From contig QNCF01000001.1 in assembly GCA_003644395.1 (NCBI GenBank), positions 1 through 35,686 on the forward strand: a DNA stretch of 35,686 nt, read 5' to 3'. The notes under the pieces were generated by a model. It did not search any database, was not told the origin of the DNA, and saw only the letters and a list, made by a program, of their open reading frames with translations. The DNA comes from Candidatus Omnitrophota bacterium (lineage in GTDB: Bacteria > Ratteibacteria > UBA8468 > B48-G9 > JAFGKM01). A program made the translations under genes and the position numbers. This document shows, one piece after another, positions 1-30,647 of the stretch. Numbering within the stretch: the first letter of the stretch is position 1; every line of letters starts with the position of its first letter.

Positions 1-1
1 A

Positions 2-115
2 AATATTGAATTATTCTTAAAAGGGAACAATCTCCTTGATACCTATTATGAAGAATTTTACTCTTATGGAACTGAAGGGAGAAGTATTTATGGTGGTTTA
101 ACAGTAAGATTCTGA
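2..115 (+). CDS. TonB-dependent outer-membrane receptor, C-terminal fragment (5' end lies outside the window)
   Basis: An open frame runs in from the window edge: NIELFLKGNNLLDTYYEEFYSYGTEGRSIYGGLTVRF-stop. A final beta-strand ending in a terminal Phe is the classic C-terminus of TonB-dependent receptors. The stop TGA (113-115) overlaps the ATG of the next gene (TGATG). It is absent from the ORF track because it has no start codon in the window. Confidence 0.55.
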   Translation, partial: NIELFLKGNNLLDTYYEEFYSYGTEGRSIYGGLTVRF

Positions 116-1873: not shown

Positions 1874-1874
1874 T

Positions 1875-2663: not shown

Positions 2664-2688
2664 TAAAAATTGAGAAAGAAATTATAAT
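2660..2688 (+). promoter_or_regulatory. Possible sigma70-type promoter ahead of the six-paralog operon
   Basis: TTAATA (2660-2665), a 17 nt spacer, then a perfect TATAAT (2683-2688). The SD GGAGGTGGAGG follows at 2700-2710. The -35 is weak, and the AT-rich background makes chance matches likely. Confidence 0.25.
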
Positions 2689-2710
2689 AAACAATCAATG
2701 GAGGTGGAGG

Positions 2711-4090
2711 ATGAAAAGTGCTATTTATGAAAAAGTTGGTGTAAAGATTGTTTATGGAGCTCTTGTCCATAAAGGAACCCATGAAGGACCATGCAGAATA
2801 GGAGATAAAAAATCTTTATCTCTGGAGAATGAAAGAAAATTGGCTAAAGAGGATTTTTCAAATTTTGTAAAAGAAGTGGAAAGGAATATAAATAAGGAAT
2901 ATGCTGAACTGCTGGAACCTGTTTATATTGAATACTTTGAGGATTTCATTATAAAAGAGAGCGAATTTAAAAAATTAGAAAAAGATCTGGAAAATGTTGA
3001 TTTATTTCTTTTAAAAGGAAGAATCCCTGGCATTGAAAGGTATAAAAAACCTGTTTGTATGATTGGTAAGGGAGTGACAAATGTTGATGTTTCAGCATAT
3101 ATGAGAAGCAGAGGGTTTGAGGGTTACGCAATTTTTGATTTTAACCATCTTAATGATTTAATTTATCTGCTTAAAGTTAGAAAATCAATTAAAAAAACAA
3201 AAATATTGAGAATATCCGGTGGTGAAGAAATACCATGGGGAGTTGTAAGCAGTATATATGATTTTGAAAAAATTAAAGATAAATATGGAACAGAAGTTAA
3301 AACAATTCTTTTTGATGAGTTTTTTGGAGAAATGGAAGAAATAGAGAAAAAAGAAACAGAAGAGGCTGAAAAGATTTACAGTAAACTGGTTAAAGAAGCA
3401 GTAAAGGTACATATGAAGAAGGAAGATATAATTGGCAGTATTTATTTTTATTTAACAGCAAGAAGTTTAATGGGGAAATTTAACTGTAATGCTTTTACCT
3501 GCTCCTGTTTTGAACTTTGCAGTACACAGATTCCTGAAAAGAAAAAATTTACTCCATGTCTTACCCACACTCTTTTGAAAGATGAAGGGTTTCCCTCTTC
3601 CTGTGAAGAAGATATAAGTGTACTTCTGGCTATGGCTATTTTAATGTATCTTTCAAAAAAATCTTCTTACATGGGAAATCCTTATGTTGTGGATAAAAAC
3701 ATTTTAAGGATAATTCACGATGTTCCTGGAATAAAAATGAAAGGACTTGATAAAGAACCACTTCAATATGAAATAAGAAATTTTACAGTTGCTGGATGGG
3801 GAGTAAATATAAGGTATGATTTTTCTCAGGATAAAGGAGAAAAAGTTACACTTGCAAGATTTGATCCGCTTGGTGAAAAAATCCTCGTTGTGAAAGGGGA
3901 GATATTGAAAGGATTGAATTTCAATGAGATTGGATGTTCCTTAGGTGTTGAAATTAAAGTATCTGATGCAATGGAATATTTCAATAAGGCTGGAGATTTT
4001 GGCCACCACCTTGCCATGGTTTACGGAGATTATACAGAAAAGATTAAAAAACTTGCCAGATTGATGGATTTTGAAGTTGTTGAAGTTTAA
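2711..4090 (+). CDS. AraA/FucI-superfamily isomerase-like protein, paralog 1 (Asn-type)
   Basis: 459 aa, with SD GGAGGTGGAGG directly upstream. Core motifs: FTCSC, TPC-x14-CEED-x21-N (SSYMGNPYV), IIHDVPG, IGCSLGVEIKV, GHHLAMVYGDY. The CExD...MGN...H pattern aligns with the AEGD...FMED...H catalytic core of E. coli L-arabinose isomerase (recalled from memory). Confidence 0.7.
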   Translation: MKSAIYEKVGVKIVYGALVHKGTHEGPCRIGDKKSLSLENERKLAKEDFSNFVKEVERNINKEYAELLEPVYIEYFEDFIIKESEFKKLEKDLENVDLFLLKGRIPGIERYKKPVCMIGKGVTNVDVSAYMRSRGFEGYAIFDFNHLNDLIYLLKVRKSIKKTKILRISGGEEIPWGVVSSIYDFEKIKDKYGTEVKTILFDEFFGEMEEIEKKETEEAEKIYSKLVKEAVKVHMKKEDIIGSIYFYLTARSLMGKFNCNAFTCSCFELCSTQIPEKKKFTPCLTHTLLKDEGFPSSCEEDISVLLAMAILMYLSKKSSYMGNPYVVDKNILRIIHDVPGIKMKGLDKEPLQYEIRNFTVAGWGVNIRYDFSQDKGEKVTLARFDPLGEKILVVKGEILKGLNFNEIGCSLGVEIKVSDAMEYFNKAGDFGHHLAMVYGDYTEKIKKLARLMDFEVVEV

Positions 4091-4111
4091 TGGTTAAAAA
4101 AGGGGGTAATT

Positions 4112-5437
4112 ATGGATGGTGAGAAAAGTAAAAAGGTGCTTTACATTCAGATATTCGGGAATAAAACTGAAAATGTTGAAAAAGCAAAAAAGGAAATAAA
4201 AGAAATAGCAGGAGATATTGTTGAATTTTTGCCTGATGTTATTTTTGATAAAAAGATACCTTCAGATATCTCTCCTTATTTAAATATAAAAACAGATATT
4301 GTTGTGCCTTTATTTCTGGGACTTGATGTTGAACCATTTGCTTACATAAAAAAACCAATCATTTTATGGACAGAGGGCGGGTATTATGGAGCATGGTCAA
4401 AAGACCTCAATTCTTTTTTAACCTTAAAGGGAGCAGAAGTTTACCAGTTTATAACTCCATCTGAGGCCAGAGAGACATTGAAAGTTTTAAGAACAAGAAA
4501 AAGAATGAGTAAAAGTAAAATTTTATATTTTGGAGAAATGGCAGGAACAACTGCTCACAGAGACCTTTCTGGAGTGATAGGTTCTGACTGGAATCTGGAA
4601 AGGGTAAAGGATGTTTTTGGGTGCATCGTTAAACAGATACCGATGGATTATCTCTTAAAAGAAGTGGATAAAGTGAATCTGGATTCAGCAAAAGAAGAAT
4701 TTAAAGAATGGGAAGATAAAGTTGAGGATTTTGGAGATATAAGCAAAGATGGTTATCTGGAGGTTGTAAAATTTTATCTTGCAATGAAAAAAATATTAAA
4801 AGAACAGGATGCAGATGCATTAACAATAAACTGTTTATCAGATTTATTTAAGAAAAAATTCATTACACCATGCCAGGCTCTTGCAAAACTGAACGATGAA
4901 GATATACCAGCAGGTTGCGAAGGTGATCTGAACGCCTTGCTTACAATGATGGTTTTCCATTATACAACAGATACTCCTTCCATTATGGGAAATATTTATC
5001 TTTTCAGACCGGAAAATGGGCCTGGATTTCCACCTCCTGAAGTCAGAGTTGCTGATGCAAAAGAATACCTTTCTCAAAATAAAGCAAGATTCACTCATGA
5101 TGTAATTCCATTGAGAATTGCAAAAAGCAAATATTTTCTCACCACTTATCACAACAGTGGTAAAGGAATAACAGGATATGCTGAATTACCAAAAGGTGAA
5201 ATAACTGTTGCAAGAATAGGCCCAGAAGCAAATAGAATGGTGATTACAACTGCTGAAATTGTAGAAGTTGAAAAATCTGGACATTGTTCATTCTCTGCTT
5301 ATTTAAAAATGAAAAACCTTGAAGAATATCTGAGGCAAACATCATCAATTCACAATGTAATCACTTATGGGAACCATATAAGCGAAATAAAAAAATTGGG
5401 AAAAATAATGAATCTTAAAGTTGTTGAAATTGGATAG
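4112..5437 (+). CDS. AraA/FucI-superfamily isomerase-like protein, paralog 2 (Asn-type)
   Basis: 441 aa, SD GGGGG. Core motifs: LTINC, TPC-x14-CEGD-x21-N (PSIMGNIYL), FTHDVIP, GHCSFSAYLKM, IHNVITYGNH. Closest in motif wording to paralog 5. Confidence 0.7.
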   Translation: MDGEKSKKVLYIQIFGNKTENVEKAKKEIKEIAGDIVEFLPDVIFDKKIPSDISPYLNIKTDIVVPLFLGLDVEPFAYIKKPIILWTEGGYYGAWSKDLNSFLTLKGAEVYQFITPSEARETLKVLRTRKRMSKSKILYFGEMAGTTAHRDLSGVIGSDWNLERVKDVFGCIVKQIPMDYLLKEVDKVNLDSAKEEFKEWEDKVEDFGDISKDGYLEVVKFYLAMKKILKEQDADALTINCLSDLFKKKFITPCQALAKLNDEDIPAGCEGDLNALLTMMVFHYTTDTPSIMGNIYLFRPENGPGFPPPEVRVADAKEYLSQNKARFTHDVIPLRIAKSKYFLTTYHNSGKGITGYAELPKGEITVARIGPEANRMVITTAEIVEVEKSGHCSFSAYLKMKNLEEYLRQTSSIHNVITYGNHISEIKKLGKIMNLKVVEIG

Positions 5438-5450
5438 AAAGGAAGAAAAA

Positions 5451-6812
5451 ATGAAAGAATTAAATGTAAAGCCACTCCTTATTTATCAACTCCCTGAGAG
5501 AAAAAAACAGAGGAGCTGGCGTCCATGGGGAGGTATACAGACAGAGGATGATTTAAAGGAAGAGATAAATAGAATCAATAAAGAAATTGAAGAATTATTA
5601 CATAAAATAGAATTCCCGTGCAGGATATTGCCATTAACTCCAATTGACAGAAAAGATAAAATAGACAGCCAGGAGATTAATTATTCAGATGTTCTGTTAA
5701 TTTATGCAGCAGGTGGTTCTGTAGATATTTTAGATAAATTAACTTCTTATGGGAAACCTGTTATCTTTTTTATAAGGCATAGATCTGGGCCGATTTATTA
5801 CTGGTATGAAGTTATCCACCCGACTTTTCTCCGTAGAAAGACTGATGATATTTCAAGAGGAGATGTTGGTGTAGAAGATATAGTTATAGATGATTATGAT
5901 GAGATCTTATGGAGGTTAAGAAGCATTTATGGTTTAAAAAATACGATAGGGAAAAGGATAATTGCTGTAGGAGGGCCTTCTGGATGGGGAGAAATTTCTG
6001 GAAGAGATGCACCTTTTCTTGCAAGGAAGATATGGCACCTTGATATAATAGATTTTCCTTATCCAGAACTTGGAGAAAGAATAAAAAAAGAAAAGAATAA
6101 AATTTTAAATGAATGCGAAAGGAAAGCCAGAGAGTATCTCCAGCAGGGAAATATCACTCTTGAGACAGATGAGAAATTTGTAATAAATTCTTTTCTTCTT
6201 TATAAAATTTTTAAAGATTTATTGATTGAATACAAATCCGATGCAATAACAATAAATTACTGTATGAATACTATTATGCCTTTAGCAGAAACTACAGCCT
6301 GTCTCCCTTTGAGTTTACTCAATGATGAGGGATACCTCGCTTTCTGTGAATCAGATTTTGTTGTTATACCATCCGGTATCCTTTTACATCATATTTCAGG
6401 TAAACCAGTATTTCTTAATGACCCGACAACTCCTCATAATGGAATAGTAACTCTTGCTCATTGTACAGCACCGAGAAAGATGGATGGGAAAAATTATGAA
6501 CCAGCAAAAATAGTTACGCATTTTGAATCGGATTATGGAGCATCCCCAAAAGTTGAATTCAAAAAAGGACAGCAAGTAACAGTAATAGTTCCTGATTTCA
6601 GTGGAAAGTTATGGATAGGGTTTAAAGGGAAAATACTGGAATCCCCTTCCTTCCCTATATGCCGTTCTCAAGTAGAGGTGGAAATAGAAGGAGACTGGAA
6701 GAAATTATTGCAGAAGATGAGGGGATTTCACTGGATGATGTGTTATGGAGATTACCTGAAAGAAGTCGGATATGCATTGAAAAAAGTTGGTATAAAATTT
6801 GAAATTGTTTAA
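5451..6812 (+). CDS. AraA/FucI-superfamily isomerase-like protein, paralog 3 (Asp-type)
   Basis: The track ORF starts at TTG 5421. I prefer ATG 5451 (MKELNVKPLL), which follows AGGAAG. Core motifs: ITINYC, TAC-x14-CESD-x21-D (VFLNDP), LAHCTAP, ICRSQVEVEI, GFHWMMCYGDY. Closest to paralog 4. Confidence 0.7.
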   Translation: MKELNVKPLLIYQLPERKKQRSWRPWGGIQTEDDLKEEINRINKEIEELLHKIEFPCRILPLTPIDRKDKIDSQEINYSDVLLIYAAGGSVDILDKLTSYGKPVIFFIRHRSGPIYYWYEVIHPTFLRRKTDDISRGDVGVEDIVIDDYDEILWRLRSIYGLKNTIGKRIIAVGGPSGWGEISGRDAPFLARKIWHLDIIDFPYPELGERIKKEKNKILNECERKAREYLQQGNITLETDEKFVINSFLLYKIFKDLLIEYKSDAITINYCMNTIMPLAETTACLPLSLLNDEGYLAFCESDFVVIPSGILLHHISGKPVFLNDPTTPHNGIVTLAHCTAPRKMDGKNYEPAKIVTHFESDYGASPKVEFKKGQQVTVIVPDFSGKLWIGFKGKILESPSFPICRSQVEVEIEGDWKKLLQKMRGFHWMMCYGDYLKEVGYALKKVGIKFEIV

Positions 6813-6823
6813 TGGAGGAAAAG

Positions 6824-8200
6824 ATGGAATTAAGAATTTTAATTATTAAACCACCAAAACAATACCTTTCTGAAAAGGAGAGTGAAAAAGGTTATTGGGG
6901 ATTTGTAAGGTGTAAGAAGGATTATGAGGAGGAAAAAGAAAATATAAATAAGGAATTTAAAAATCTGGTCGGATCAATTAAAAAAGAAGGTATAGAGGCA
7001 AATCTTCTGCCAGCAATAGAAGTTGAAAATATAAGTGATTTATTAAAAAAAGAGAAAGAGATTAAAAAATCTGATGTAAATATAGTCTTAACAATATCCT
7101 GGGGTGGATGGTATTCCTGTGGAGATTTAATACATGGAATAGTTGCTTTATCAGATTATGTGATTTTCTATGATAGTTTTAAGGAGAATATATATGCGGG
7201 AACATTATTTAATCCACCTGCTTATAAATTGCTTGAAAAAAATGGACTTTCAGAAAAAATTTTTCTTGTGGAGGGAGATAAAGAGAAGATAAAAATTATT
7301 CTGAGAGCAATCTATTCATTAAAGAAAATTTCATCTTCAAATCTTGTATGTGTTGGCCCAATGAATCCACTGTTTGGAGGATGGTTTTCTTTTAAAAAAG
7401 GGACTGAAACTTTCGGGTATAAAACTGTATTCTACACATACGATGAATTTGTTGAGGATTTCAATAATTTCATGAAAGATAAGGATAAATGTAAAGAAGC
7501 AAAAAGAGTGATTGAAGAATTCATATCAAACTCAGAAGGAGTTATTGAACCAACAGAAGAAAAACTTCTCAGGGCGGGAATATACTACCTTGTTTTAAAG
7601 AAATATGTGGAGGAAAATGAATCTGATTGGATAACAGTAAACTGCTGGGGTAAACTTATTGAGACAACAGAATCCACACCATGTTTTGCATTTTCAAAAT
7701 TTAATGATGATGGAATAGTTGCAACATGTGAAGCCGACCCAACTGCCATGATTACCCATTATCTTATGAGACATATTTCCGGAAAACCAGCATTTTTTAA
7801 TGACCCAACTGTAAATGAAAAAGATGGAACACTTATACTTGCCCACTGCACCTCTCCAACAAAACTTCTTGGATTCAGTAAACCTCCATTTTCTTATCAA
7901 GTGAGAACACACCATGAATCAAATTATGGAGCAACTCCAAAACTTATATTTAAAGAAGGTAATGTGACAGTAACTGGATTATCTTTTGATATGGAGAAAA
8001 TGCTTATTTTAAAAGGAGAAGTTATTGGCAGTCCTGATTTAAGGATATGTCGGTCTCAGGTGGAGGTAAAAGTGAATAATCCATCAGAAATACTTGAGGA
8101 CTGGCAGGGTTTCCACTGGGTGCTTGTGTATGGAGACTATACTGAAGAGATGGAGATAATCTGCAAGATAAAGAAGATAAAAGGAATTGTTTATAAATAA
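6824..8200 (+). CDS. AraA/FucI-superfamily isomerase-like protein, paralog 4 (Asp-type)
   Basis: The track ORF starts at ATG 6812, which overlaps the upstream TAA. ATG 6824 (MELRILII) sits 5 nt after GGAGG and is the better start. Core motifs: ITVNC, TPC-x14-CEAD-x21-D (AFFNDP), LAHCTSP, ICRSQVEVKV, GFHWVLVYGDY. Confidence 0.7.
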   Translation: MELRILIIKPPKQYLSEKESEKGYWGFVRCKKDYEEEKENINKEFKNLVGSIKKEGIEANLLPAIEVENISDLLKKEKEIKKSDVNIVLTISWGGWYSCGDLIHGIVALSDYVIFYDSFKENIYAGTLFNPPAYKLLEKNGLSEKIFLVEGDKEKIKIILRAIYSLKKISSSNLVCVGPMNPLFGGWFSFKKGTETFGYKTVFYTYDEFVEDFNNFMKDKDKCKEAKRVIEEFISNSEGVIEPTEEKLLRAGIYYLVLKKYVEENESDWITVNCWGKLIETTESTPCFAFSKFNDDGIVATCEADPTAMITHYLMRHISGKPAFFNDPTVNEKDGTLILAHCTSPTKLLGFSKPPFSYQVRTHHESNYGATPKLIFKEGNVTVTGLSFDMEKMLILKGEVIGSPDLRICRSQVEVKVNNPSEILEDWQGFHWVLVYGDYTEEMEIICKIKKIKGIVYK

Positions 8201-8210
8201 GGAGGAGAAA

Positions 8211-9536
8211 ATGAAAGTAAGTATCCAGCCTGTAAATTTAATACCACCTCAAAAAGATATCTCTCAACTTCCAGTTTTAAGGGTGGAGACATGGATAAAG
8301 GGGCCAAAAAAACCAAGAAATTTAAAAAGAATAAAAGAGATACCACCGGAAGATGTAAGTATTGAAAAACTCTGTGAAAAGTTTGACTTTTTGGAAATTC
8401 TTCCTCCCGAAAATATCAGAAAAGTAAGCGATATTGATGGACTTAAAAGGGATGTATCTGCTTATATCATAAGCGGTTATGACCTTGCATTAGCAGGGGA
8501 GATAGCTAAACTTGGAAAGCCAGTTTTACCTTACTGGGATAACTGGGGATATGCATGGAATGGAAGATGGATAAAGGAAGCCAGTGATGAAGCTGGTGGA
8601 GTATGTTTCGTCCCATTTGGTTCTGAAGATATTGAGAAAATTATAAGAGTTTTAAGAGCATATACCTTCATAAGGGAAATGAGAGTATTATATATAGGAG
8701 ATATACCTTCAAACAGTGTTAAAGATGCAAATTATGATTTTACAGACCTTGAAACCAGATTTGGAATACAGTTTATCCACCTGAATTTTGATGATTTATT
8801 AAAAGCAGTTGAAAAAATAAGTGATGAAGAGAGTGGAAAAATAGCAAATCTCTGGAAAGAAAATGCAGAGATTCTTGATGGAAGAGAAAAAAGACTTAAA
8901 GATTATGCAAAAATATATTTGGGATTGAAAAAATTACTGGAGGAATACAATGCCAATGGTTTAACAGTTGATTGTGCTTTTTTACCGAATGTTGAACTTG
9001 TCCCATGTTATTCTTTTGGAATTCTGATAGATGAAGGGATACCATGTGGATGTGAAGGAGATACATCTGCTCTTTTGGGAATGAGCATACTTATGGGTTT
9101 ATCAGGAAAATCTGCATTAATGGGAAACTTATTTGAAAATAATACACATGATGATATTGAAAACAATGTAATTGTAATAAACCATGATGTTGTCCCTCCT
9201 TCTATGGGAGATGGGAAAGAAAAGATAAAATTGAGAGATTTCCATGCATCTAAAAAAGGGCTTACAGGATTTGTAAAACTTAAGGAAGGTGAGAAAGTAA
9301 CTATTGTTGGAATGGACAGGAAAGCAAGAAGAATCTGGTATAGCGAAGGCGAAATTTTATGGACAGAAGATACAGTCCATTGCAGAACAAGTATCGGTAT
9401 AAAAGTAAAAGATGCAAAAAGAATTGGAAAAGAAAGTTTTGGTCATCATCAGGCAATCTCTTATGGAAACCTATGTGATGAAATTGAAATGCTTGGAAAA
9501 ATATTTAAAATAGAAACCATAAATTTAGGAAAATGA
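8211..9536 (+). CDS. AraA/FucI-superfamily isomerase-like protein, paralog 5 (Asn-type)
   Basis: The track ORF starts at TTG 8187. ATG 8211 (MKVSIQP) follows GGAGGAG. Core motifs: LTVDC, VPC-x14-CEGD-x21-N (SALMGNLFE), INHDVVP, VHCRTSIGIKV, GHHQAISYGN. Confidence 0.7.
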   Translation: MKVSIQPVNLIPPQKDISQLPVLRVETWIKGPKKPRNLKRIKEIPPEDVSIEKLCEKFDFLEILPPENIRKVSDIDGLKRDVSAYIISGYDLALAGEIAKLGKPVLPYWDNWGYAWNGRWIKEASDEAGGVCFVPFGSEDIEKIIRVLRAYTFIREMRVLYIGDIPSNSVKDANYDFTDLETRFGIQFIHLNFDDLLKAVEKISDEESGKIANLWKENAEILDGREKRLKDYAKIYLGLKKLLEEYNANGLTVDCAFLPNVELVPCYSFGILIDEGIPCGCEGDTSALLGMSILMGLSGKSALMGNLFENNTHDDIENNVIVINHDVVPPSMGDGKEKIKLRDFHASKKGLTGFVKLKEGEKVTIVGMDRKARRIWYSEGEILWTEDTVHCRTSIGIKVKDAKRIGKESFGHHQAISYGNLCDEIEMLGKIFKIETINLGK

Positions 9537-9547
9537 GGAGGGGGAAA

Positions 9548-10858: not shown

Positions 10859-10874
10859 TTAAAAAGGAGGGGAA

Positions 10875-14585: not shown

Positions 14586-17094
14586 CTTTTATAACCAATT
14601 TTCCTTCAGCATATGCTTTTCTAACTCTATCACAGTATTTACATTCCCCTTCAGGATGGCAGAGGATGATAGTTGGGTCTTTCCTCAACTCTTTTATTAT
14701 ACTCTTTACCAGTTCCCTTGCCCTCATTATCTTTACACGTGCTTTCCCAACCTTTCCCTCTTTCACTATTCCACTCTTTTTCCAGATGGGCTCCATCACT
14801 TCAAGCAATCTTCCAAACCCTGCTGTTGGCCAGTTTGTTAAATGGACAACCTTTACCTTTCCATTATCAAAAATACGGACATCTCCTTCTTCCAGATTTG
14901 ATGGTTCCATCAATTGCTGTGCATAATGGATTGTTGTATTTGATTCATGCCCAACACCAAGCAATAAAATATATCCATTCCATCTTACCAATTTATCAAT
15001 TGGGCTTCCAGGCCCAAGTGCAGGGCCAACTTTATGGTCTTTTGTTATTTCAACTGCTTTCCCACCTATAGCTGCTACTGAATGGGTTGGATGACGGCTT
15101 CTCACCGCATCTTTTCTCTTTCTGAAAACTTCTGTTAAAGTCCCAACAAAAGATGGGGAAGTCTCAGGGTCAAATACACCACCTACATATACTCTCCCTT
15201 CAAGTGTATGGGTTGGAACAATAACTGTTCCCTTTTTCCCAACAGTCTCTATCAAAGCATCTATAACTGTATTTGCTCCACCTTCAACATAACCGAGACT
15301 GCGGAGTGAAGAGTGGACCATCACAATATCTCCTTCCTTCAAACCAAGTTTCTTCAAATCCTTCTTTAAATCCTCCTTTGTAAATCCTTTCTCCTTAAGT
15401 CTCCTCTTCACATTTAATGTTTCAAGTAAATGGTTTATCCTTCCATACTCATCCTTCACCACTTTCTTTATCTCTTTTTTCAGAAATGAAATGTAATCTT
15501 TGAAATGGGAATGTTCTGCTTTTGGAACCAGTTTTAATAATGAATCAAAAGCCTCCATCTCCCTTTCCTTCATATAACCAATTTTCCTCTCAATATCATC
15601 CAGTAAAGATTCCTTATCCTGAATTTTATCCAATTTTGAGATATATTTTTCAATCTCACTGATTATCCTTACTTTCGCCCTGGAACACATCTCCTCAGCA
15701 AGCCATCGTGCTTCTTCTTTTCCGGCATTGGCAATAAAGTAAGCATATATAGCTGAAATTATTCCTGTTCTTTTCAAAGTTAAAGGGTCAATCTGGTCCG
15801 GTCTATCATATGAAGTATGATAGGTGAGGTAATCTATTCCTGTACTTAAACTTGGTGTGGGTACACCAACTGATCTATCAGAAAGGATTCTGCTTTCCGG
15901 TTCAATATATTCTCCTTTTATCCATCTGAAAGGTACTTCACTTTCTGGAGAATCTTCCCTTGAAAATTCCTGTGAGGATTTTTCCACTATCCATTCAAGT
16001 AAGTCATCAACAAAAGAGGGAGTATCCTGGTGGGCATGTGTCCTTCCAACTTTTAAAATTATATTTTTCTTTTTAGGGTCTATACCAACACAATCAAGGT
16101 TAAGTCCTGCTATTGTATTTTGAATTTTATCTTTATTATTTGCCAGATAAGAGGATATTCCAAAAAATTCTGCTCCAAGAAGGAATCTTATACTCCTTTT
16201 GGGAGGAGGCAATTTCCCCTTTTTAATCAATCTGTTCAAACACCTTGCAACTTCAAGTAATACTGCACAGCCAGAAGCATTATCCACTGCTCCAGGCTCA
16301 TTTAAATGTGCAACAAGTAAAATCTCTTCCTTCCCTTTCCCTGGTATTACACCTGTAACATTCCCTGTTACCCCTTCGTATATCTCACTATCTACATTTG
16401 CAAAAACTTTTACTTTTCCATATTTTTTAATTAAATTTTCAAGATATTCTCCGTCCCTTGGAGAGATTGAAAAAGCAAAACAATTTTTCTCAAATTTCCA
16501 TCCAAGTAAAAAATGCCACCTTACAGAATCAGGGATTTTGTATAGTTTATTTGATTTAAGATATAAATACCTTGCATCCTGTATTATACCAATAGCACCT
16601 TTTTCCACTGCCAATCTCATTATTGACCTTGCCAACTGGTGAGTAAAGATGATTTTTCCCTTCACATCAATACCTTCATAATCTTTTTCTTTCATTCCAT
16701 CAGGAATAAATACCACCTCTGCCTCTATTCCACCCTTTGGAGTTGGAGGCGAAAGAGAAATGACTGAACAGCGATTTTCACTGTATCTTGCCAAAACTTT
16801 CCCCTTTGCTTCTTCAGGATAAGTGATTATCAATTCACCTTCTTTAATTCTCCATGCAGAAGGCATAATATAATCTCCATATTTTGTTATTCCATCAGCA
16901 GGATAATCCAGTATCTCCACTCCACTTAAACCACTTTCTTTCAAATCATCCATACAGTATTTTGCAGCTTCATAATATCCTGGAGAATAGACCTCACGGT
17001 TAAAACAGAAAATTTCATATACAAGGCGGTAACATCTTTCCCTTGAAAACTCCAGTTCTATTGCATCATACAGATTTTTAAACTCTCTTTCCAT
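14569..17094 (-). CDS. Fusion protein: M28-like (aminopeptidase-like, DUF4910-type) N-terminal domain, helical linker, and AAC(3)-family N-acetyltransferase C-terminal domain
   Basis: 841 aa. N-terminal half carries M28-like motifs: LLVAHLNEPGAVDNASGCAVLLEVAR, LLGAEFFG, LNLDCVG, YHTSYDRPDQID. C-terminal ~270 aa match the aminoglycoside 3-N-acetyltransferase family: DIVMVHSSLRSLGYVEGGANTVIDAL, GTVIVPTHT, SRHPTHSVAAIG, GHESNTTIHYA. The tail contains CHPEGECKYC. Confidence 0.7.
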   Translation of the reverse strand: MEREFKNLYDAIELEFSRERCYRLVYEIFCFNREVYSPGYYEAAKYCMDDLKESGLSGVEILDYPADGITKYGDYIMPSAWRIKEGELIITYPEEAKGKVLARYSENRCSVISLSPPTPKGGIEAEVVFIPDGMKEKDYEGIDVKGKIIFTHQLARSIMRLAVEKGAIGIIQDARYLYLKSNKLYKIPDSVRWHFLLGWKFEKNCFAFSISPRDGEYLENLIKKYGKVKVFANVDSEIYEGVTGNVTGVIPGKGKEEILLVAHLNEPGAVDNASGCAVLLEVARCLNRLIKKGKLPPPKRSIRFLLGAEFFGISSYLANNKDKIQNTIAGLNLDCVGIDPKKKNIILKVGRTHAHQDTPSFVDDLLEWIVEKSSQEFSREDSPESEVPFRWIKGEYIEPESRILSDRSVGVPTPSLSTGIDYLTYHTSYDRPDQIDPLTLKRTGIISAIYAYFIANAGKEEARWLAEEMCSRAKVRIISEIEKYISKLDKIQDKESLLDDIERKIGYMKEREMEAFDSLLKLVPKAEHSHFKDYISFLKKEIKKVVKDEYGRINHLLETLNVKRRLKEKGFTKEDLKKDLKKLGLKEGDIVMVHSSLRSLGYVEGGANTVIDALIETVGKKGTVIVPTHTLEGRVYVGGVFDPETSPSFVGTLTEVFRKRKDAVRSRHPTHSVAAIGGKAVEITKDHKVGPALGPGSPIDKLVRWNGYILLLGVGHESNTTIHYAQQLMEPSNLEEGDVRIFDNGKVKVVHLTNWPTAGFGRLLEVMEPIWKKSGIVKEGKVGKARVKIMRARELVKSIIKELRKDPTIILCHPEGECKYCDRVRKAYAEGKLVIKDVPEK

Positions 17095-17842
17095 TTTCTA
17101 TTCTGTTAAGAAGGTAAATAATCTCATCCATATCCTGGAACCTTTCCTTAGGGTCTTCCTTTGTTGAAACTTCTATAATATGAGAAATCTCATTTGTAAT
17201 TGGGAAATTCAATTGAGAAAATATATTCTCCATACTTTTTCCAAAAGAATAGATATCCACTCTTTTATCAATCCTTCCCTGATAGACTTCAGGAGCAATA
17301 TATCCTCTCGTTCCACCAGAAGAAGGCGGATTTTTCCAGAAAATAAATCTCTTTTTCCTTGCAAGTCCAAAATCTGTAATCTTTACTTTTTTCAGAGAGT
17401 AGGAGAGTAATATATTTGAAGGATTGAAATCTTTATGGATGATACCCTTTTTATGAAGATAAGAAAGACCCAAAGCAGATTTTTTCAATATTTCTATAAT
17501 CTTTTCAAATGTGAATACTTCCTTTTTCGTTTTTATCATCTTATTCAGGTCAATATCCAGAAGTTCCATGAAAATAAAAAAATTTCCTTCATATTCCACA
17601 AAATCATAGACTTTTACTATATTCTCATGTTCAAGTGACATTGCAATATGTGCTTCATTTTTAAACCTTTTAATCTGCTCCTTTTCAATTCTTCTTGGAT
17701 GCAATACTTTAACAGCAATTACATTTCCAAAAGGAGGGTTAAGTGTAACACTTGTTGCTTTATAGACTGTGGAAAATCCTCCTGAACCAACCATCTCCTC
17801 AAGTCTGTATCCCTTTACCACAAATCCAGACCTTACCTTCAT
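17078..17842 (-). CDS. Hanks-type Ser/Thr protein kinase, catalytic domain only, with an atypical catalytic loop
   Basis: 254 aa with Gly loop GSGGFSTV, VAIK-type Lys in IAVKVL, catalytic loop HKDFNPSN (canonical HRDLKPxN), DFG (ITDFGLA) and APE (YIAPE). There are no extra domains or TM segments. The stop overlaps the start of the 841 aa fusion by 17 nt. Confidence 0.8.
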   Translation of the reverse strand: MKVRSGFVVKGYRLEEMVGSGGFSTVYKATSVTLNPPFGNVIAVKVLHPRRIEKEQIKRFKNEAHIAMSLEHENIVKVYDFVEYEGNFFIFMELLDIDLNKMIKTKKEVFTFEKIIEILKKSALGLSYLHKKGIIHKDFNPSNILLSYSLKKVKITDFGLARKKRFIFWKNPPSSGGTRGYIAPEVYQGRIDKRVDIYSFGKSMENIFSQLNFPITNEISHIIEVSTKEDPKERFQDMDEIIYLLNRIENGKRV

Positions 17843-17861
17843 TTTTTTGAAAAATCATTAC

Positions 17862-17889
17862 ATTTTAAACCATTTAAAATTTTTGTCAA
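17862..17889 (-). promoter_or_regulatory. Possible sigma70-type promoter for the kinase-to-etfA sub-operon
   Basis: Read on the minus strand: TTGACA (17889-17884), a 16 nt spacer, then TAAAAT (17867-17862), ending 19 nt before the kinase ATG. The -35 hexamer contains the TGA stop of the upstream gene. No SD lies between the -10 and the ATG. Confidence 0.35.
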
Positions 17890-18947
17890 TCCTTGCTTCT
17901 TTTAACTTTATATGGTAAAAGCCATCTTTTCCTTCTTATAAATGGTTCGTTTTTAAACCTCTGCTCAACAATACCTGCTTTTTCTAAGAAATTGAAACAA
18001 CTTCTCATGCAACCTCTGGAACCGCATATTCCGTAACTTCCTCCAACTCCCCATTTCTGTAAATAGGCATGCCCTTCAATTATATAACCTGACGGGAATT
18101 CTTCTGTCTTCCTCCATTTACCTGTGGAAAGACTCCAGCAGAATTTGTAAGCAGCTTCTTCTGAAAAATTCTGCTTCCTTGCATCTATGTTCCATCCTGG
18201 AAAGGATTTGTGGATGAAAGGAGAGACTCTTGAATCACCACCGTGATAACTTAAAGTGCATTTTCCAAGGTCAATATCTGCCCATTCATAAGTATAATTT
18301 TCTATCTTTATACTTACTTTTTTTCCTTCTTTTATGTGTGGTATTGCATTTGAAGGACAACCTTTAACACATTCCATACACCTTTTGCATATACTTCCAG
18401 GTTTTACAAGAGGGTCTGGTTCAACTTCAAGGTCTGTGATTATAGCATGCAATCTCTGTCTTGGCCCATATTTTTTTGTCAAAAAAACTTTGCTCCATCC
18501 AATCTCTCCAAGGCCAGCACAGACTGCTGCTATTCTTATTGCAAGATGGACATCTGGAGGTGGCTGATTTTCTCTCAATGGCTTTCCAGGTGGTTTCGCT
18601 TCAGGAACTCCTGAATAGTAAGGAACTGCTTCATATCCATAATCTTCAATGAAACAGGCAAGTTCATATAATGGGAGCTGGATGAAAAATGAGTTTAAAA
18701 GTCCATGGTAATCAAAATAAGTATAGGATACCCAGTTTGTCCCCTCCTCAATTCCGCGCCAGCCTCCCCTTAATATCCTTTTCCCCACAACTATGACTGT
18801 CTTTGCTTCTGGAAAAATACTTTTTGGATGCATATCTACTGGAGCATTTTCAAATCTTTCAATATTTGCAAAACCTATAAGGTCAAGTCCAAGTGAATAT
18901 GCAACCTCTCTTATTTTTTCTTTTGTCAATCTTTTTCCCATTTCCAC
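17886..18947 (-). CDS. QueG / reductive-dehalogenase-superfamily Fe-S protein (single module, long C-terminal extension)
   Basis: 353 aa. The block AAVCAGLGEIGWSKVFLTKKYGPRQRLHAIITDLEVEPDP, followed by CKRCMECVKGCPSNAI, matches the AGLGxxG...GxxxR...CxxCxxCxxxCP core of epoxyqueuosine reductase and RdhA-like proteins. Further Cys (CTLSYHGG, CGSRGCMRSC) could form a second cluster. Confidence 0.65.
   Translation of the reverse strand: MEMGKRLTKEKIREVAYSLGLDLIGFANIERFENAPVDMHPKSIFPEAKTVIVVGKRILRGGWRGIEEGTNWVSYTYFDYHGLLNSFFIQLPLYELACFIEDYGYEAVPYYSGVPEAKPPGKPLRENQPPPDVHLAIRIAAVCAGLGEIGWSKVFLTKKYGPRQRLHAIITDLEVEPDPLVKPGSICKRCMECVKGCPSNAIPHIKEGKKVSIKIENYTYEWADIDLGKCTLSYHGGDSRVSPFIHKSFPGWNIDARKQNFSEEAAYKFCWSLSTGKWRKTEEFPSGYIIEGHAYLQKWGVGGSYGICGSRGCMRSCFNFLEKAGIVEQRFKNEPFIRRKRWLLPYKVKRSKD
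18774..18830. repeat. 57-bp near-identical tract shared with 19601-19657 (copy A)
   Basis: tatccttttccccacaactatGactgtctttgcttctggaaaaatactttttggatg. It is 56/57 identical to copy B and encodes HPKSIFPEAKTVIVVGKRI on the minus strand. The flanking sequence is diverged. Confidence 0.9.
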
Positions 18948-19759
18948 ACAGACCTCTTTCTGAATTTTTCATTGAATAAATTTTTTATTCTTTTCTTCTT
19001 CTCAAGATGAGAAAGGCATGTTCTTGAACATAAAGCAGCTATTCTGTCTGGTTTTGCATCTTCATAATAAATATTTGGAAATACACCATTTTTACATATC
19101 CTGCACTTTTCCCATTCAATTTCTGCAACGACCATTTCCTTTCCACATATTTTTATTTTTCTTTCTTTTCCACCTATTGCATTAAGAGGACATATCCTCA
19201 CACATTCTTTACATAAATCACATATATTTTCTTTTTTTATCGGGTCTGGCTCTATCTCAGCATCGGTAATAATTGCCTGGAATCTCTGTCTTGGGCCAAA
19301 TTCAGGAGTTAAAAATATCCCGCAATATCCAATCTCTCCAAGACCTGCTCTTACTGCTGCATCTTCTATATCAATCAAAACATTTGGAGCAGGATACCCT
19401 TTCTTCACAGGTATCCCCATCGGTGGAGTATCTGGAGGAATATTCGGTAAAGGGACTGCTTCATATCCTCTATCTTCAAGAAATTCACTTATTTTAAAAG
19501 TCACCATTGCAAGGAACCTGTCTTCAAGCCAGATTCTTCCGTAAAATGAATAAATGCCAAACTGTGTCCCTTCCTCAACACCTCTCAGCGTCCCTCTTGT
19601 TATCCTTTTCCCCACAACTATAACTGTCTTTGCTTCTGGAAAAATACTTTTTGGATGGTGCTGTTTTTCAATCCCATCAAATCTTTCAATATTTGCTATT
19701 CCAATTAAATCTGCTTTCACCTTCCTTGCATACTCTTTCAATTCTTCTTTATCAATCAT
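18926..19759 (-). CDS. QueG / reductive-dehalogenase-superfamily Fe-S protein (single module, short form)
   Basis: 277 aa with AAVRAGLGEIGYCGIFLTPEFGPRQRFQAIITDAEIEPDP, CDLCKECVRICPLNAI, CRICKNG and CSRTC. It has a 4-nt overlap with the upstream gene and a 22-nt overlap with the downstream gene. Confidence 0.65.
   Translation of the reverse strand: MIDKEELKEYARKVKADLIGIANIERFDGIEKQHHPKSIFPEAKTVIVVGKRITRGTLRGVEEGTQFGIYSFYGRIWLEDRFLAMVTFKISEFLEDRGYEAVPLPNIPPDTPPMGIPVKKGYPAPNVLIDIEDAAVRAGLGEIGYCGIFLTPEFGPRQRFQAIITDAEIEPDPIKKENICDLCKECVRICPLNAIGGKERKIKICGKEMVVAEIEWEKCRICKNGVFPNIYYEDAKPDRIAALCSRTCLSHLEKKKRIKNLFNEKFRKRSVWKWEKD
19601..19657. repeat. 57-bp near-identical tract shared with 18774-18830 (copy B)
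   Basis: tatccttttccccacaactatAactgtctttgcttctggaaaaatactttttggatg. The single difference from copy A (19622 vs 18795) is a synonymous Val codon change. Confidence 0.9.
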
Positions 19760-21972
19760 TCCCTCCTCCCCTTAAATGGGCAAACTCTTATACATTCCTC
19801 ACATATATTTAAATGCCTTTTCTGCACTCCCCATTTCACTTTACTCACATTCCTTGCAATTTTCTCAATATCTATATTTTCAGAAATATTTATCTCAGGG
19901 TTTATCCCATAATATTTTGGCCCTTCCTCACCACTTAAACAATATCTTTTTGCCATGTCACATTTATAAAGGTCAATAACAGGATATTTAAAATCTATCC
20001 CTTCAAATTCAAAACTCACCGTTTCATTTTTTATCGCATCTGTTGGGCATGATGAAATACATAAATTACAGTCTTCACAATAATTTTTTCCATTATAGAG
20101 AGGGTCATCTTCAAAAAATCCATCTGTTAAAACAAAGATAAATCTCTGTCTCTGTCCAAACTTTTCAGTAATTATTACTCCATTCTTTCCAATATAACCG
20201 ATACCTGACAGGAAAGCCTCAAAGTTCCCTGTCCTTGCATCTGGGAGATAACCTCTTGAATTCTTTACATATGAATAAAAACCGGTGATTGAATGGGTGA
20301 GAGTAGCTTTATATCCATTTCCTTCAAGGAACTTTACAAGATTCAATCCAATATCCTTTAAAAGAAGGAGTGTCTCATAATGAGCATAGGCATAAGGGCT
20401 GACTGTTTCAGCAGGGGTTACCTTTGCAGTATCAATACATGCATCAGGGAAATGAAGACCGATTGCTATTGCAGATTTTCCATCCTCCAAATAATCTTCA
20501 AATTTTTTAATCTTTATTTTCCTTTCCCTGATTTCAGGAATAAATGGCCCATAAATCTTTCCCTTATCCAAAATCTCATAATAATTTTCTGGAATAAAAT
20601 TTCCCATCTTTTTTATAAATCTCTCATACCTTTCTTTTGTGAAAAATCCAACAAGGTCTGCTCCCTGATTTAAACAGAAATCTTTAATATCTTCCTTCCT
20701 CAAATTTCTCCTTCCTTTCTTACTTTCATATCTTACATTCGGAAAATCTGCTCCTGTAATAACTGTGGAAAAATAATAGTTTTTAACTTTACCTGTTATT
20801 TCCTGACCTATGAGTGAATGCGGGATATTGTAGGATGTGATTGAAGAATAGCCAGATATATCAAAAAGATGAGCAATTTTGAAAGACAAAAGGTTTAATC
20901 TTCTTTCAACTGAAGATAAAAGGTCAGGAGTTTCATTATCCACCTTAATCCCTATTGAGATTACGCTCTTCCCATCAGGTAAATGGTATTCGGGATGGAA
21001 ATAATTTGAATTTCTGAAATTATCAACAGGACAGGAGACAAAAATATCAATGAAGTTTTCTTCAACCATCTTTAAAATTTCATTTTTTAAAATTTCCGGT
21101 GATTTTTTTATCTCCTTTTTTCTCCTTGGAGCATCTGTATAATCTTTCTGATAGTACCTTTTCTGAGGAACCATACAGTATTTAAGGCACATCCCTTCTT
21201 CCCCACCTTTTATTCCATATTTTTCAAGATTTTCAAGAATTACTTCCTCATCAACTTTTTCAGGGATTGGAAGTGAAAGATTTAAAAGGAAATTCTCAGC
21301 CCAGGCACATCTCCACTTATTTATATCAGGGAATTCAAAAATCTTTCCCCCTATTTCAATTCTGTTTATCTTTTTCACTTCCTTTCTGAAAGCATCTGTT
21401 GGACAGTGCCTTACACATTCCATACACCTGTCACATAATCTTTCTCCTTCATACATTGGGTCAGGTAAAAGTTCAGCCTCTGTAATAACTGAAATCACTC
21501 TCTGCCTTGGGCCAAATTCAGGAGATAAAAAAAGACCGCTCCATCCAATCTCACCGAGACCAGCACAGACTGCTGCATATCTATGGGCAAGGTCTGGAGC
21601 AAAGGAAATTTTAAGGTCTTTATAAGGATAATATCTCCATATATTGGTTGAAGCAATAGGCAATGTTTTATATCCCTTTTTTTCAAGGAATATCGCCATT
21701 TTGAATGCCAAATCATCAAGAATTGGATTCATTGCTGCACTTTGCGTGCGATAAGGACCCATATCATGTGGGGTGGGATATCCTCCAAGTTCAACAGCAC
21801 AATCAAGATGGTGTATACCCATAACTATCACACTTTTTGCTTCAGGTAGCAGACCCTTTGGACTCATCCTTAAAGGTGCATTCTTAAATCTCTCAACAGG
21901 AGCAATTCCAACAAGGTCTGCTCCAAGTTTTTTGGCATAATCCTTAACTTCACTTGTAAGTTTTTCCTCCAT
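19756..21972 (-). CDS. Internally duplicated QueG / reductive-dehalogenase-superfamily Fe-S protein (two modules in one polypeptide)
   Basis: 738 aa. N-module: KKLGADLVGIAPVERF, AAVCAGLGEIGWSGLFLSPEFGPRQRVISVITEAELLPDP, CDRCMECVRHCPTDAF. C-module: NQGADLVGFFTKERY, LSGIGYIGKNGVIITEKFGQRQRFIFVLTDGFFEDDP, CEDCNLCISSCPTDAI, CEECIRVCP. Confidence 0.65.
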   Translation of the reverse strand: MEEKLTSEVKDYAKKLGADLVGIAPVERFKNAPLRMSPKGLLPEAKSVIVMGIHHLDCAVELGGYPTPHDMGPYRTQSAAMNPILDDLAFKMAIFLEKKGYKTLPIASTNIWRYYPYKDLKISFAPDLAHRYAAVCAGLGEIGWSGLFLSPEFGPRQRVISVITEAELLPDPMYEGERLCDRCMECVRHCPTDAFRKEVKKINRIEIGGKIFEFPDINKWRCAWAENFLLNLSLPIPEKVDEEVILENLEKYGIKGGEEGMCLKYCMVPQKRYYQKDYTDAPRRKKEIKKSPEILKNEILKMVEENFIDIFVSCPVDNFRNSNYFHPEYHLPDGKSVISIGIKVDNETPDLLSSVERRLNLLSFKIAHLFDISGYSSITSYNIPHSLIGQEITGKVKNYYFSTVITGADFPNVRYESKKGRRNLRKEDIKDFCLNQGADLVGFFTKERYERFIKKMGNFIPENYYEILDKGKIYGPFIPEIRERKIKIKKFEDYLEDGKSAIAIGLHFPDACIDTAKVTPAETVSPYAYAHYETLLLLKDIGLNLVKFLEGNGYKATLTHSITGFYSYVKNSRGYLPDARTGNFEAFLSGIGYIGKNGVIITEKFGQRQRFIFVLTDGFFEDDPLYNGKNYCEDCNLCISSCPTDAIKNETVSFEFEGIDFKYPVIDLYKCDMAKRYCLSGEEGPKYYGINPEINISENIDIEKIARNVSKVKWGVQKRHLNICEECIRVCPFKGRRE

Positions 21973-27990: not shown

Positions 27991-28012
27991 AGACTATTAT
28001 AGAGGAGGGAAA

Positions 28013-29224: not shown

Positions 29225-29268
29225 CAAATTTATGAATTATGGTAGTCTTTTTTAAAAAGGAGGGAATA

Positions 29269-30628: not shown

Positions 30629-30647
30629 TTTGGCTCAACCCTTTTCC

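Follow-up and report, generated by a model that had tools for sequence, protein, structure and literature searches.

The window analysed here is a complete contig of 35,686 bp. It comes from the metagenome-assembled genome (MAG) of an uncultured sediment bacterium, which was submitted under the name "Candidatus Omnitrophota bacterium" with locus tags DRP67_000xx. Our subject is a block of genes between positions 2711 and 21972, where a forward-strand array encoding six isomerase-like paralogs and a TIM barrel converges on a reverse-strand array that includes four reductase modules resembling QueG and RdhA. A preliminary description had proposed that the two arrays form one accessory system for the redox transformation of carbohydrates or aminocyclitols. 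Gene content was taken from a map of the open reading frames (ORFs) and from Pfam and NCBIfam scans, and the block contains the following features.

2711..4090, + strand: iso1, isomerase-like protein of type A (GN...HD), the widely conserved one of the six, with orthologs 40-96% identical in many phyla (AlphaFold2 (AF2) model and Foldseek)
4112..5437, + strand: iso2, type A (domain scans, alignment)
5421..6812, + strand: iso3, type B ([NS]D...HC) (domain scans, alignment)
6812..8200, + strand: iso4, type B (SftI model at E 2e-21, far under its cut-off)
8187..9536, + strand: iso5, type A (Pfam AraA_central 32.8 bits against a cut-off of 24; NCBIfam AraA E 4e-11)
9533..10858, + strand: iso6, type B (ortholog in the relative L090, 83% nucleotide identity, L090:6593-7902)
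10875..11639, + strand: AP_endonuc_2 TIM barrel, candidate Mn2+ 3-keto-glycoside beta-eliminase (best match in the Protein Data Bank (PDB) 8BVK)
11636..12823, - strand: EtfA, alpha subunit of an electron-transferring flavoprotein (Etf) with an N-terminal 2x[4Fe-4S] ferredoxin domain, putatively of the CarE/LctC type (Pfam Fer4, ETF and ETF_alpha)
12820..13611, - strand: EtfB, putatively of the CarD/LctB type (CarD 215 bits)
13608..14585, - strand: MocA, a predicted NAD(P)-dependent sugar or cyclitol dehydrogenase of the Gfo/Idh/MocA family (Pfam/NCBIfam)
14569..17094, - strand: fusion of a DUF4910/M28 metallohydrolase-like part with an AAC(3)-type N-acetyltransferase, 841 amino acids (Pfam)
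17078..17842, - strand: stand-alone Hanks-type Ser/Thr kinase catalytic domain, 254 amino acids (Pkinase E 2e-41)
17886..18947, - strand: rdh1, predicted corrinoid and 2x[4Fe-4S] module (TIGR02486 E 2e-12, under cut-off; Foldseek)
18926..19759, - strand: rdh2, minimal module of 277 amino acids, the conserved upstream partner of rdh1 (NCBIfam, alignment, loci)
19756..21972, - strand: rdh34, two modules fused, 738 amino acids (Pfam, NCBIfam, alignment)

The forward array (2711-11639) holds the six paralogs of about 450 amino acids followed by the TIM barrel, and the reverse array (11636-21972) reads, from the junction outwards, EtfA, EtfB, MocA, the M28-AAC(3) fusion, the kinase and three genes with the four QueG/RdhA-like modules. 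The stop codons of the two arrays overlap, the TAA of the TIM barrel occupying 11637-11639 and the TAG of etfA (reverse complement) 11636-11638, which bears out the meeting point at 11636-11639 given in the preliminary description. Its gene lists for both arrays are also confirmed at their coordinates, though EtfB (12820-13611) was not listed separately in it, and its domain assignments and list of chemistries were right. As it also said, the block is free of regulators, and Pfam and NCBIfam scans detect in it neither a glycoside hydrolase nor a sugar kinase domain. Those block proteins that we looked up in the deposited annotation are labelled "hypothetical protein". The nearest named relatives differ from gene to gene, with iso1 closest to a partial protein from Calescamantes (89% amino acid identity) and rdh1 to one from WOR-3 (84%), which makes the taxonomic placement uncertain.

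The reading of the block turns on whether its parts travel together. Isomerase-like, Etf and M28-AAC(3) genes are all absent from the 83 rdh loci (718 kb in total, with 31 loci of 10 kb or more), and no rdh or Etf gene is found in 8 independent isomerase-like loci (130 kb). The 82 loci for the M28/DUF4910 family, 80 from a scan of genome contigs and two that were looked up, likewise lack iso and rdh genes, while two of them have Etf-like genes several kb away; the scan brought up no close relatives of the block. Among the closest relatives, L088 (86% nucleotide identity) matches the window over iso1 only and its downstream genes are unrelated; L090 (83-84%) matches only iso1 and iso6, the genes that separate the two are not those of the window, and a convergent array of reductases is lacking. 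The full arrangement was found only in L001, L173 and ENA/NCBI contigs of the same 90% clusters, that is, in the same population. The two operons, and sub-modules within each, occur independently. Independent occurrence in related genomes is what the preliminary description itself had named as an outcome that would speak against one system, and the single-system claim is not supported.

We give a probability of about one half to the reading that the block is a lineage-specific mosaic of at least four independently distributed modules in a compact genome, and not one conserved two-operon system. It draws on the gene content, the predicted folds, the conservation of active-site residues, the riboswitch described below and the independent distribution of the modules. 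Several points weigh against it. Reading frames overlap or nearly abut throughout the block and no unrelated gene is inserted, and MocA stands across the junction from its usual partners, the TIM barrel and the isomerase-like genes; a real cooperation of all the parts is possible for these reasons. Absence at the level of the locus is also compatible with co-occurrence at the level of the genome, and most of the comparison contigs are short (median <10 kb). The tight packing extends into pyrE, pabB, rpiB and sua5, so that adjacency is weak evidence either way.

Neither array is sharply bounded on the ORF map. The reverse array runs without real gaps from a DUF1614 gene (26889) through a Sua5-phosphatase fusion, rpiB, pabB, pabC and pyrE into rdh34, rdh2, rdh1 and on to etfA, its reading frames overlapping by 4-22 nt; the 43 nt between rdh1 and the kinase are its sole real gap. 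The forward array reaches back to btuF, with 47 nt between btuD and iso1 and no predicted terminator there. Close packing is the rule in this genome, housekeeping genes included, and adjacency therefore has little functional weight alone. The GC content is about 33%, and Lys and Glu are abundant in the encoded proteins. The GC content at third codon positions (GC3) is flat at 0.22-0.30 over the block and its housekeeping flanks, so composition lends no support to the "accessory" label of the preliminary description, and it gives no evidence for horizontal transfer either. Promoter and terminator scans of the window were both at chance level overall. The best sigma-70-like match lies in the gap between rdh1 and the kinase:

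17862..17889, - strand: TTGACA-16-TAAAAT, candidate internal promoter

This site could serve the genes from the kinase to etfA, and is offered as a lead only. The best promoter-like hexamer pairs of this chance-level scan, 17862-17889 (-) and 2660-2688 (+), coincide with the two short gaps (rdh1/kinase and btuD/iso1), which hints at sub-operons.

These features bear on the possibility that the block is a pure chance juxtaposition, with no shared substrate or electron flow: B12 import would serve the rdh cassette or other B12 enzymes of the genome, Etf a dehydrogenase encoded elsewhere, and the isomerase-like proteins would be ordinary isomerases. Every module is found independently elsewhere, unrelated housekeeping genes are packed just as tightly, the flat GC3 leaves nothing to mark the block as an island, and the best promoter-like site divides the reverse array between rdh1 and the kinase. 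This would leave unexplained, however, why a B12 theme appears at both ends of the block and Btu-type genes lie near rdh cassettes in other loci too, why an orphan bifurcating Etf sits beside Fe-S/corrinoid reductases that need low-potential electrons, and why MocA faces the TIM barrel and the isomerase-like genes at the junction. We regard pure chance as unlikely, while still giving it real weight.

The first of these themes concerns the genes immediately upstream of iso1.

1..114, + strand: 3' end of a TonB-dependent receptor gene, BtuB-like (on L173 a Plug and TonB_dep_Rec gene that ends at btuF)
115-990, + strand: BtuF-like binding protein (Pfam Peripla_BP_2; best NCBIfam model BtuF, below curated cut-off)
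920-1873, + strand: BtuC-like FecCD permease (Pfam FecCD; best NCBIfam model BtuC, below curated cut-off)
1875-2663, + strand: ABC ATPase, BtuD-like (Pfam ABC_tran)

The 5' part of the receptor gene lies outside the window and was read from L173. This Logan contig of 72.7 kb matches the window (1-4540) at 99.4% nucleotide identity, and run SRR21024894 carries a copy with the same identity. Upstream of the receptor, at L173:5239-5440 and hence also outside the window, is a full-length cobalamin riboswitch (RF00174; 102.6 bits, with a gathering score of 31.5). The btuFCD-like genes, which by their sequences encode a corrinoid-type importer, are the tail of a BtuB-BtuFCD operon controlled by this riboswitch. 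The importer is linked by this B12 theme to the four corrinoid-type reductase modules at the opposite end of the block, and Btu-type ABC genes are also found near rdh cassettes in L114, L095 and L106. The preliminary description had taken both flanks of the block for core genes: on the far side this holds for pyrE, pabB and rpiB, which exceed curated NCBIfam cut-offs, while the presumed pabC, the fourth gene there, encodes a class-IV aminotransferase and scores under every curated cut-off, and on the near side the ABC importer is of the B12 type and not neutral core. Corrinoid- or tetrapyrrole-linked genes (Btu, RACo, URO-D, cobA/CbiX) adjoin iso1-type genes in 5 of about 10 independent contexts, a fraction for which no background rate was computed. 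Such neighbours lie at L090:431-2056, L082:7083-8231 and 11407-12516, L089:2615-3739 and L180:5114-7008, and comprise the RACo activase, URO-D family genes and cobA/CbiX/sirohydrochlorin ferrochelatase.

The six isomerase-like proteins are just 20-30% identical to one another and fall into type A (iso1, iso2, iso5; GN...HD) and type B (iso3, iso4, iso6; [NS]D...HC). Their matches to AraA_central/Fucose_iso_C and SftI are weak: iso5 alone passes the Pfam cut-off for AraA_central, and all six fall far below the NCBIfam equivalog cut-offs (AraA 622, SftI 700; best score 76 bits). The AF2 model of iso1, with a predicted local distance difference test (pLDDT) score of 95, nevertheless aligns over its full length with L-arabinose isomerase in Foldseek (template modelling (TM) score 0.72, E 3e-19, 12-13% identity); TM scores are 0.67-0.72 (E ~1e-19) against AraA from E. 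coli, Geobacillus and Thermotoga and 0.65-0.69 against FucI/D-arabinose isomerase. On this model iso1 is predicted to adopt the three-domain AraA/FucI fold throughout.

In the alignment with AraA, a CE(G/A)D motif falls on the metal-binding GAEGD and a C-terminal His on the C-terminal HH motif. Of the metal-binding and catalytic residues of AraA (Glu306, Glu333, His350 and His450), the position matching Glu333 appears to be N or D in the iso family, and H336 is invariant. Around the active-site motifs lie four family cysteines, C266, C283, C298 and C409 (iso1 numbering), of which the three within the aligned stretch (C266, C283, C298) are not Cys in the matched AraA sequences. These four, together with E299, D301, H336 and H433, are invariant or nearly so in 39 sequences from many phyla, and again in a set of 126 sequences, 120 of which are representatives (50% identity) taken from an exhaustive search, with the cysteines conserved in 123-126 of 126. 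That search returned 1028 representatives (50% identity clusters) at E<=1e-10. The six copies of the window keep all the invariant residues, and therefore none looks degenerate. The six paralogs belong to a large uncharacterised branch of the AraA/FucI fold with four invariant cysteines, at which a thiolate-ligated metal or an Fe-S site might be formed.

Members of the branch in cultured bacteria keep the Cys motifs; in Bacteroides finegoldii the annotation reads "fucose isomerase" and in Chlorohelix "L-fucose/L-arabinose isomerase family protein". MttB-type methyltransferases, suggested by the nearby corrinoid genes, were ruled out by Pfam, NCBIfam and the fold search, which point to the AraA/FucI fold. 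A scan of viral contigs with the iso alignment gave no match, and tblastn against plasmids returned one distant RdhA and two iso-family genes. A literature search on fucose-isomerase-like proteins with corrinoid, on Calescamantes dehalogenases and on QueG-like families found nothing relevant.

The gene that follows the six paralogs gives the clearest chemical lead. Its best PDB match, 8BVK (E 2e-30, 33% identity over 223 amino acids), is the structure of AtOGE, an enzyme from Agrobacterium tumefaciens that requires Mn2+ and acts as an O-glycoside beta-eliminase (PMC10628242). We took as AtOGE-type a xylose-isomerase-like TIM barrel with the metal ligands His132, Asp163, His189 and Glu233 and the catalytic His134; all of these, and Glu161 as well, are identical in the alignment with the TIM barrel of the window. 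Similar TIM barrels may be hydratases instead, as the paralog AtHYD illustrates (PMC10628242). The PDB relatives of the MocA protein include inositol dehydrogenases, DgpA and glucuronide-3-dehydrogenase. myo-Inositol catabolism was rejected on the curated cut-offs, with IolG at 110.5 bits against 355 and IolE at 43.2 against 290, and domain scans detect no IolB, IolC, IolD or IolJ-type domain within the window.

Elsewhere the iso, TIM and MocA genes are found side by side. L089 has iso1, URO-D, TIM, DUF6807, MocA and TIM; L090 has RACo, iso1, TIM, MocA, an unknown gene and iso6; and in L180, a Chlorohelix replicon, the three are interleaved with a carbohydrate ABC transporter. This recurrence as a unit suggests the known chemistry of 3-keto-glycoside oxidation and beta-elimination. 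From its gene content the triad looks like a sugar-catabolic unit, which in the window is split across the junction. The carbohydrate theme of the preliminary description is plausible and has independent support from context, by the AtOGE-like TIM barrel, by the triads (once with the sugar ABC transporter), by the DUF4910 link discussed below and by the neighbours of rdh cassettes, among which are LacI, AraC and IclR regulators, GH28, fucosidase, ThuA and DegT. The TIM barrel and MocA fit the described 3-keto-glycoside beta-elimination route, and genes that map onto known pathways were the second outcome it had named as speaking against one system. Most genes of the block have no assigned function.

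At the far end of the block, the four rdh modules match the corrinoid-binding core of PceA (HMMER E 1e-11), one of them also QueG, and a CxxCxxCxxxCP ferredoxin motif and three further cysteines are invariant in all four. In a Foldseek search at E<=0.001 the model of rdh1 (pLDDT 73) finds only PceA, NpRdhA and QueG (E ~1e-8), with CblC just above the threshold at E ~2e-3. The alignment and the model together predict a corrinoid-binding core and two [4Fe-4S] motifs as in RdhA. The curated models are not reached: the three proteins score 31.6, 35.8 and 70.2 bits against a cut-off of 200 for TIGR00276 (QueG), and 47.9, 45.3 and 84.4 against 160 for TIGR02486 (RdhA). In Bacillus subtilis QueG a HEAT-like tRNA-binding domain of about 130 amino acids follows the ferredoxin domain at the C terminus (PMC5175355). 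The 277 residues of rdh2 leave no room for such a domain, and the C-terminal 120 residues of rdh1 are modelled mostly as coil with three short helices. Identity with QueG was rejected on this domain architecture.

The rdh34-rdh2-rdh1 genes are a widespread, highly conserved and separate cassette. A metagenome scan gave 80 rdh loci, and the pair rdh2-rdh1 is kept in about 60 of them, often with an rdh34 ortholog ahead (L091, L101, L102, L136, L137, L144, L149 and L174). rdh1 has 2376 homolog clusters at E<=1e-10, and is 67-87% identical across MAGs of WOR-3, Firmicutes, Chloroflexi, Armatimonadota, Planctomycetota and Ratteibacteria (at least 6 phylum-level groups). This level of identity is typical of core informational proteins, yet the genes around rdh1 vary from locus to locus and many of them encode regulators. 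Among 146 neighbours of rdh loci we counted 11 IclR, 6 AraC and 3-4 LacI-type regulators, together with FAD_oxidored, MocA, DegT, alpha-L-fucosidase, MFS and ThuA genes. The operon of L174 (WOR-3), the closest named relative, reads IclR, rdh34, FAD_oxidored, a second rdh1 (rdh1'), a Cys-rich protein, rdh2, rdh1, DUF1284 and GH28. This Cys-rich protein of about 340 amino acids, which has no Pfam match, stands between rdh1' and rdh2 in 8 rdh cassettes (e.g. L091:8076-9098; L174:8097-9128) and is absent from the window.

Such conservation raises the question of whether the cassette has a housekeeping role, for example by modifying or repairing a nucleoside or cofactor in the manner of QueG, unrelated to sugars. 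A role of this kind would account for the 67-87% identity across phyla, and it would sit well with QueG being among the two closest characterised relatives, with the place of the cassette directly after sua5, rpiB, pabBC and pyrE in the window, and with a MiaB-like gene upstream in L176 and queE/queC at 4-5 kb in L174. It fits poorly with the lack of room for a HEAT-like tRNA domain and a C terminus of rdh1 that is not a six-helix bundle, with several paralogous modules per cassette, with neighbours that are chiefly catabolic-type regulators (IclR, AraC, LacI) and carbohydrate genes, and with scores under the QueG equivalog cut-off for all modules; we consider it very improbable. The queE-like radical SAM gene and queC of L174 (L174:15695-16947), which lie downstream of its cassette and bear on this alternative, are probably there by coincidence.

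Two genes between MocA and rdh1 appear to be local additions. The kinase has the VAIK-like Lys and the HKD, DFG and APE motifs, with no extra domains. PADLOC matched this protein through generic kinase models (mad6, PD-T4-6) and no other protein of the window, and a reading as a defence system was rejected. A reading as a pathway for ribosomally synthesised and post-translationally modified peptides (RiPPs), based on kinase, peptidase and acetyltransferase, was rejected as well: no gap could hold a precursor peptide gene, and the M28 homologs pair with MocA or acetyltransferases. The fusion scores 194.6 bits for Antibiotic_NAT, 66 for Peptidase_M28 and 49 for DUF4910 in Pfam. Its AAC(3) part reaches 156.7 bits against the NCBIfam AAC_3 cut-off of 270 and forms the C-terminal third of the protein instead of a stand-alone enzyme of about 260-290 amino acids; aminoglycoside resistance was rejected on this cut-off. 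The M28/DUF4910 part has a best non-self relative at 45% identity, and its family is widespread, with members in Bathyarchaeia, Anaerolineae and Acidobacteriota among others. In two other contexts its homolog is accompanied by MocA and by an acetyltransferase, which is either an AAC(3) fused to it or a GNAT encoded nearby. At L172:1417-12112 an unfused homolog (45% identical) is accompanied by a GNAT, MocA, two Amidohydro_2 and three enolase-superfamily (MR_MLE) genes, a set that is reminiscent of N-acyl-amino-acid racemase pathways. For the DUF4910 prototype CA_C2195 a role in modified-carbohydrate biosynthesis, together with amino-sugar N-acetyltransferases, has been proposed (PMC4000134). 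Nothing else supports reading the fusion in terms of amino sugars. Its most likely role is that of an enzyme that (de)acetylates an amino sugar.

It is here that the idea of one integrated pathway has to be weighed, in which both operons would tailor or degrade an aminocyclitol or an unusual (amino)sugar by isomerising, dehydrogenating, N-acetylating and phosphorylating it, together with a B12-dependent low-potential reduction. The AAC(3) domain at 194.6 bits and the tie of the DUF4910 family to amino-sugar N-acetyltransferases speak for it, as do the DegT sugar aminotransferases near rdh cassettes in a few other loci, the contiguity of the block, the position of the iso array between a B12 importer and B12-type reductases, and MocA facing its usual partners across the junction. 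But the combination does not recur in the 83 rdh loci, the 8 iso loci or the closest relatives, and the arrays run on into housekeeping genes. The kinase belongs to the Hanks protein kinases and is neither of the APH type nor a sugar kinase, and the AAC(3) domain is under its NCBIfam cut-off and joined to a metallohydrolase-like part. The aminocyclitol idea of the preliminary description has only this domain and the IolG and IolE matches (110 against 355 and 43 against 290 bits, far under their cut-offs) to stand on, and is weak; the integrated pathway as a whole seems improbable.

The remaining two genes of the reverse array encode the Etf. EtfA matches CarE (6FAH) at 377 bits over its full length, ferredoxin domain included, followed by LctC (311), the Thermotoga maritima protein (306) and that of A. 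fermentans (298), against just 182 bits for human ETF, and it carries two CxxCxxCxxxCP motifs. EtfB scores 215 bits against CarD and 92 against human ETF-beta. On these similarities EtfAB is predicted to be of the electron-bifurcating CarDE/LctBC type. No domain of a flavin dehydrogenase partner (acyl-CoA dehydrogenase, LctD/GlcD-type or FixC) is present in the 35.7-kb window. Etf may feed the corrinoid reductases, standing in for the flavin adenine dinucleotide (FAD) oxidoreductase of other cassettes.

Returning to the mosaic, its four modules can be given tentative roles, in which we infer every substrate, the electron path from Etf to the rdh proteins and any cooperation between modules. 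The riboswitch-controlled BtuB-BtuFCD importer would supply corrinoid. MocA would oxidise a hydroxyl of a sugar or glycoside to the keto form, the AtOGE-like Mn2+ TIM barrel would beta-eliminate a leaving group from the keto-sugar, and the six AraA/FucI-fold paralogs would isomerise or otherwise convert the free sugars or keto-sugars released. The third module, rdh34-rdh2-rdh1, may provide four cytoplasmic corrinoid/[4Fe-4S] units for a two-electron reductive elimination on a small molecule, probably carbohydrate-derived or an aglycone. The fourth, a bifurcating-type EtfAB with its ferredoxin domain, may replace the FAD oxidoreductase and couple NADH oxidation to the delivery of electrons to the corrinoid reductases. 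Outside these four would remain the two local additions, kinase and M28-AAC(3) fusion. Some cooperation is plausible, from B12 supply to the reductases, from Etf to the reductases, and between MocA and the TIM barrel and isomerase-like proteins, and a carbohydrate theme plausibly fits all the modules.

A bolder reading would make the block a working unit in this lineage, in which a CarDE-type Etf uses the B12-dependent QueG/RdhA-like reductases as its exergonic branch instead of an acyl-CoA dehydrogenase. The reductases would eliminate a C-O (or C-X) bond reductively, and their substrate, a keto-sugar, a cyclitol or an aglycone, would be made by the MocA/OGE-like pair and the six Cys-rich AraA-fold enzymes. 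The six may then form a hetero-hexamer with an Fe-S or thiolate-ligated metal site. We hold this to be distinctly improbable, though it would, if true, be the first link of flavin-based electron bifurcation, corrinoid reductases and carbohydrate catabolism.

Outside the block, the forward-strand genes at 26991-33900 are ordinary housekeeping: a Tol-Pal-like set (MotA_ExbB, ExbD, a TolB-like PD40 beta-propeller, OmpA/Pal and a LysM protein), then dxr, rseP and ispG. On the reverse strand, 25216-26202 encodes a protein that joins a Sua5/TsaC domain to a low-molecular-weight phosphotyrosine phosphatase domain, and rpiB comes next at 24782-25225 (-). The same three functions are neighbours in the ywlC-ywlE-ywlF genes of B. 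subtilis (Sua5/TsaC, phosphatase, rpiB). Rfam and tRNA scans find no RNA gene in the window.

Three annotation gaps stand out. The rdh2-rdh1 cassette, whether or not rdh34 is present, is represented by more than 2000 sequence clusters and has near-housekeeping conservation in at least 6 phylum-level groups, and no assigned function. The Cys-rich branch of the AraA/FucI fold numbers about 1000 clusters at 50% identity and occurs even in gut Bacteroides under the name "fucose isomerase". The third gap is a bifurcating Etf without its usual partner; if it does feed the corrinoid reductases, these would be a new acceptor class for flavin-based electron bifurcation. More generally, the way genes adjoin in operons of a compact genome can suggest a pathway that has no comparative support, and the assembled "system" is probably a local arrangement.

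Each part of the block can be set against a known system. The upstream genes have the order of known BtuB-BtuFCD operons (RF00174, TonB-dependent receptor, Peripla_BP_2, FecCD, ABC ATPase), but here six isomerase-like genes come 47 nt later with no predicted terminator. These genes share with AraA/FucI the whole three-domain fold (TM 0.72 and 0.66), and their CE(G/A)D motif and C-terminal His align with GAEGD and the HH motif of AraA; they differ in being 12-14% identical, in the cysteines around the active-site motifs, in an apparent replacement of the second catalytic Glu and in their presence as six divergent tandem copies under all curated equivalog cut-offs. Oxidative 3-keto-glycoside cleavage, as known from A. 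tumefaciens (GlycDH/AtOGE/AtHYD/Gfo), gut DgpA/DgpBC and Bacteroides BT2157-2159, likewise combines a MocA-family dehydrogenase with an AP_endonuc_2 TIM barrel; in the window, however, the two are on opposite strands, with no hydratase paralog, transporter or regulator, and with six AraA-fold paralogs attached that are in no described version of the pathway.

With QueG the rdh modules share the corrinoid-binding core, the CxxCxxCxxxCP ferredoxin insert and the second-cluster cysteines, and they differ in lacking the HEAT-like tRNA domain. The respiratory RdhA PceA has the same core and ferredoxin insert, whereas no twin-arginine translocation (Tat) signal is present at the rdh N-termini and no gene for an RdhB-like small membrane anchor protein is adjacent; NpRdhA has the same core but carries a fused reductase domain that the modules lack. 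The modules are also shorter than QueG or RdhA (277-353 amino acids), fall below the TIGR02486 and TIGR00276 cut-offs and form a conserved multi-module cassette. Finally, EtfA and EtfB resemble CarE, including its 2x[4Fe-4S] domain, and CarD of the A. woodii caffeyl-CoA reductase CarCDE, and so also the lactate dehydrogenase LctBCD, whereas in place of a CarC or LctD partner the neighbours in the window are a MocA dehydrogenase and corrinoid/Fe-S reductases.

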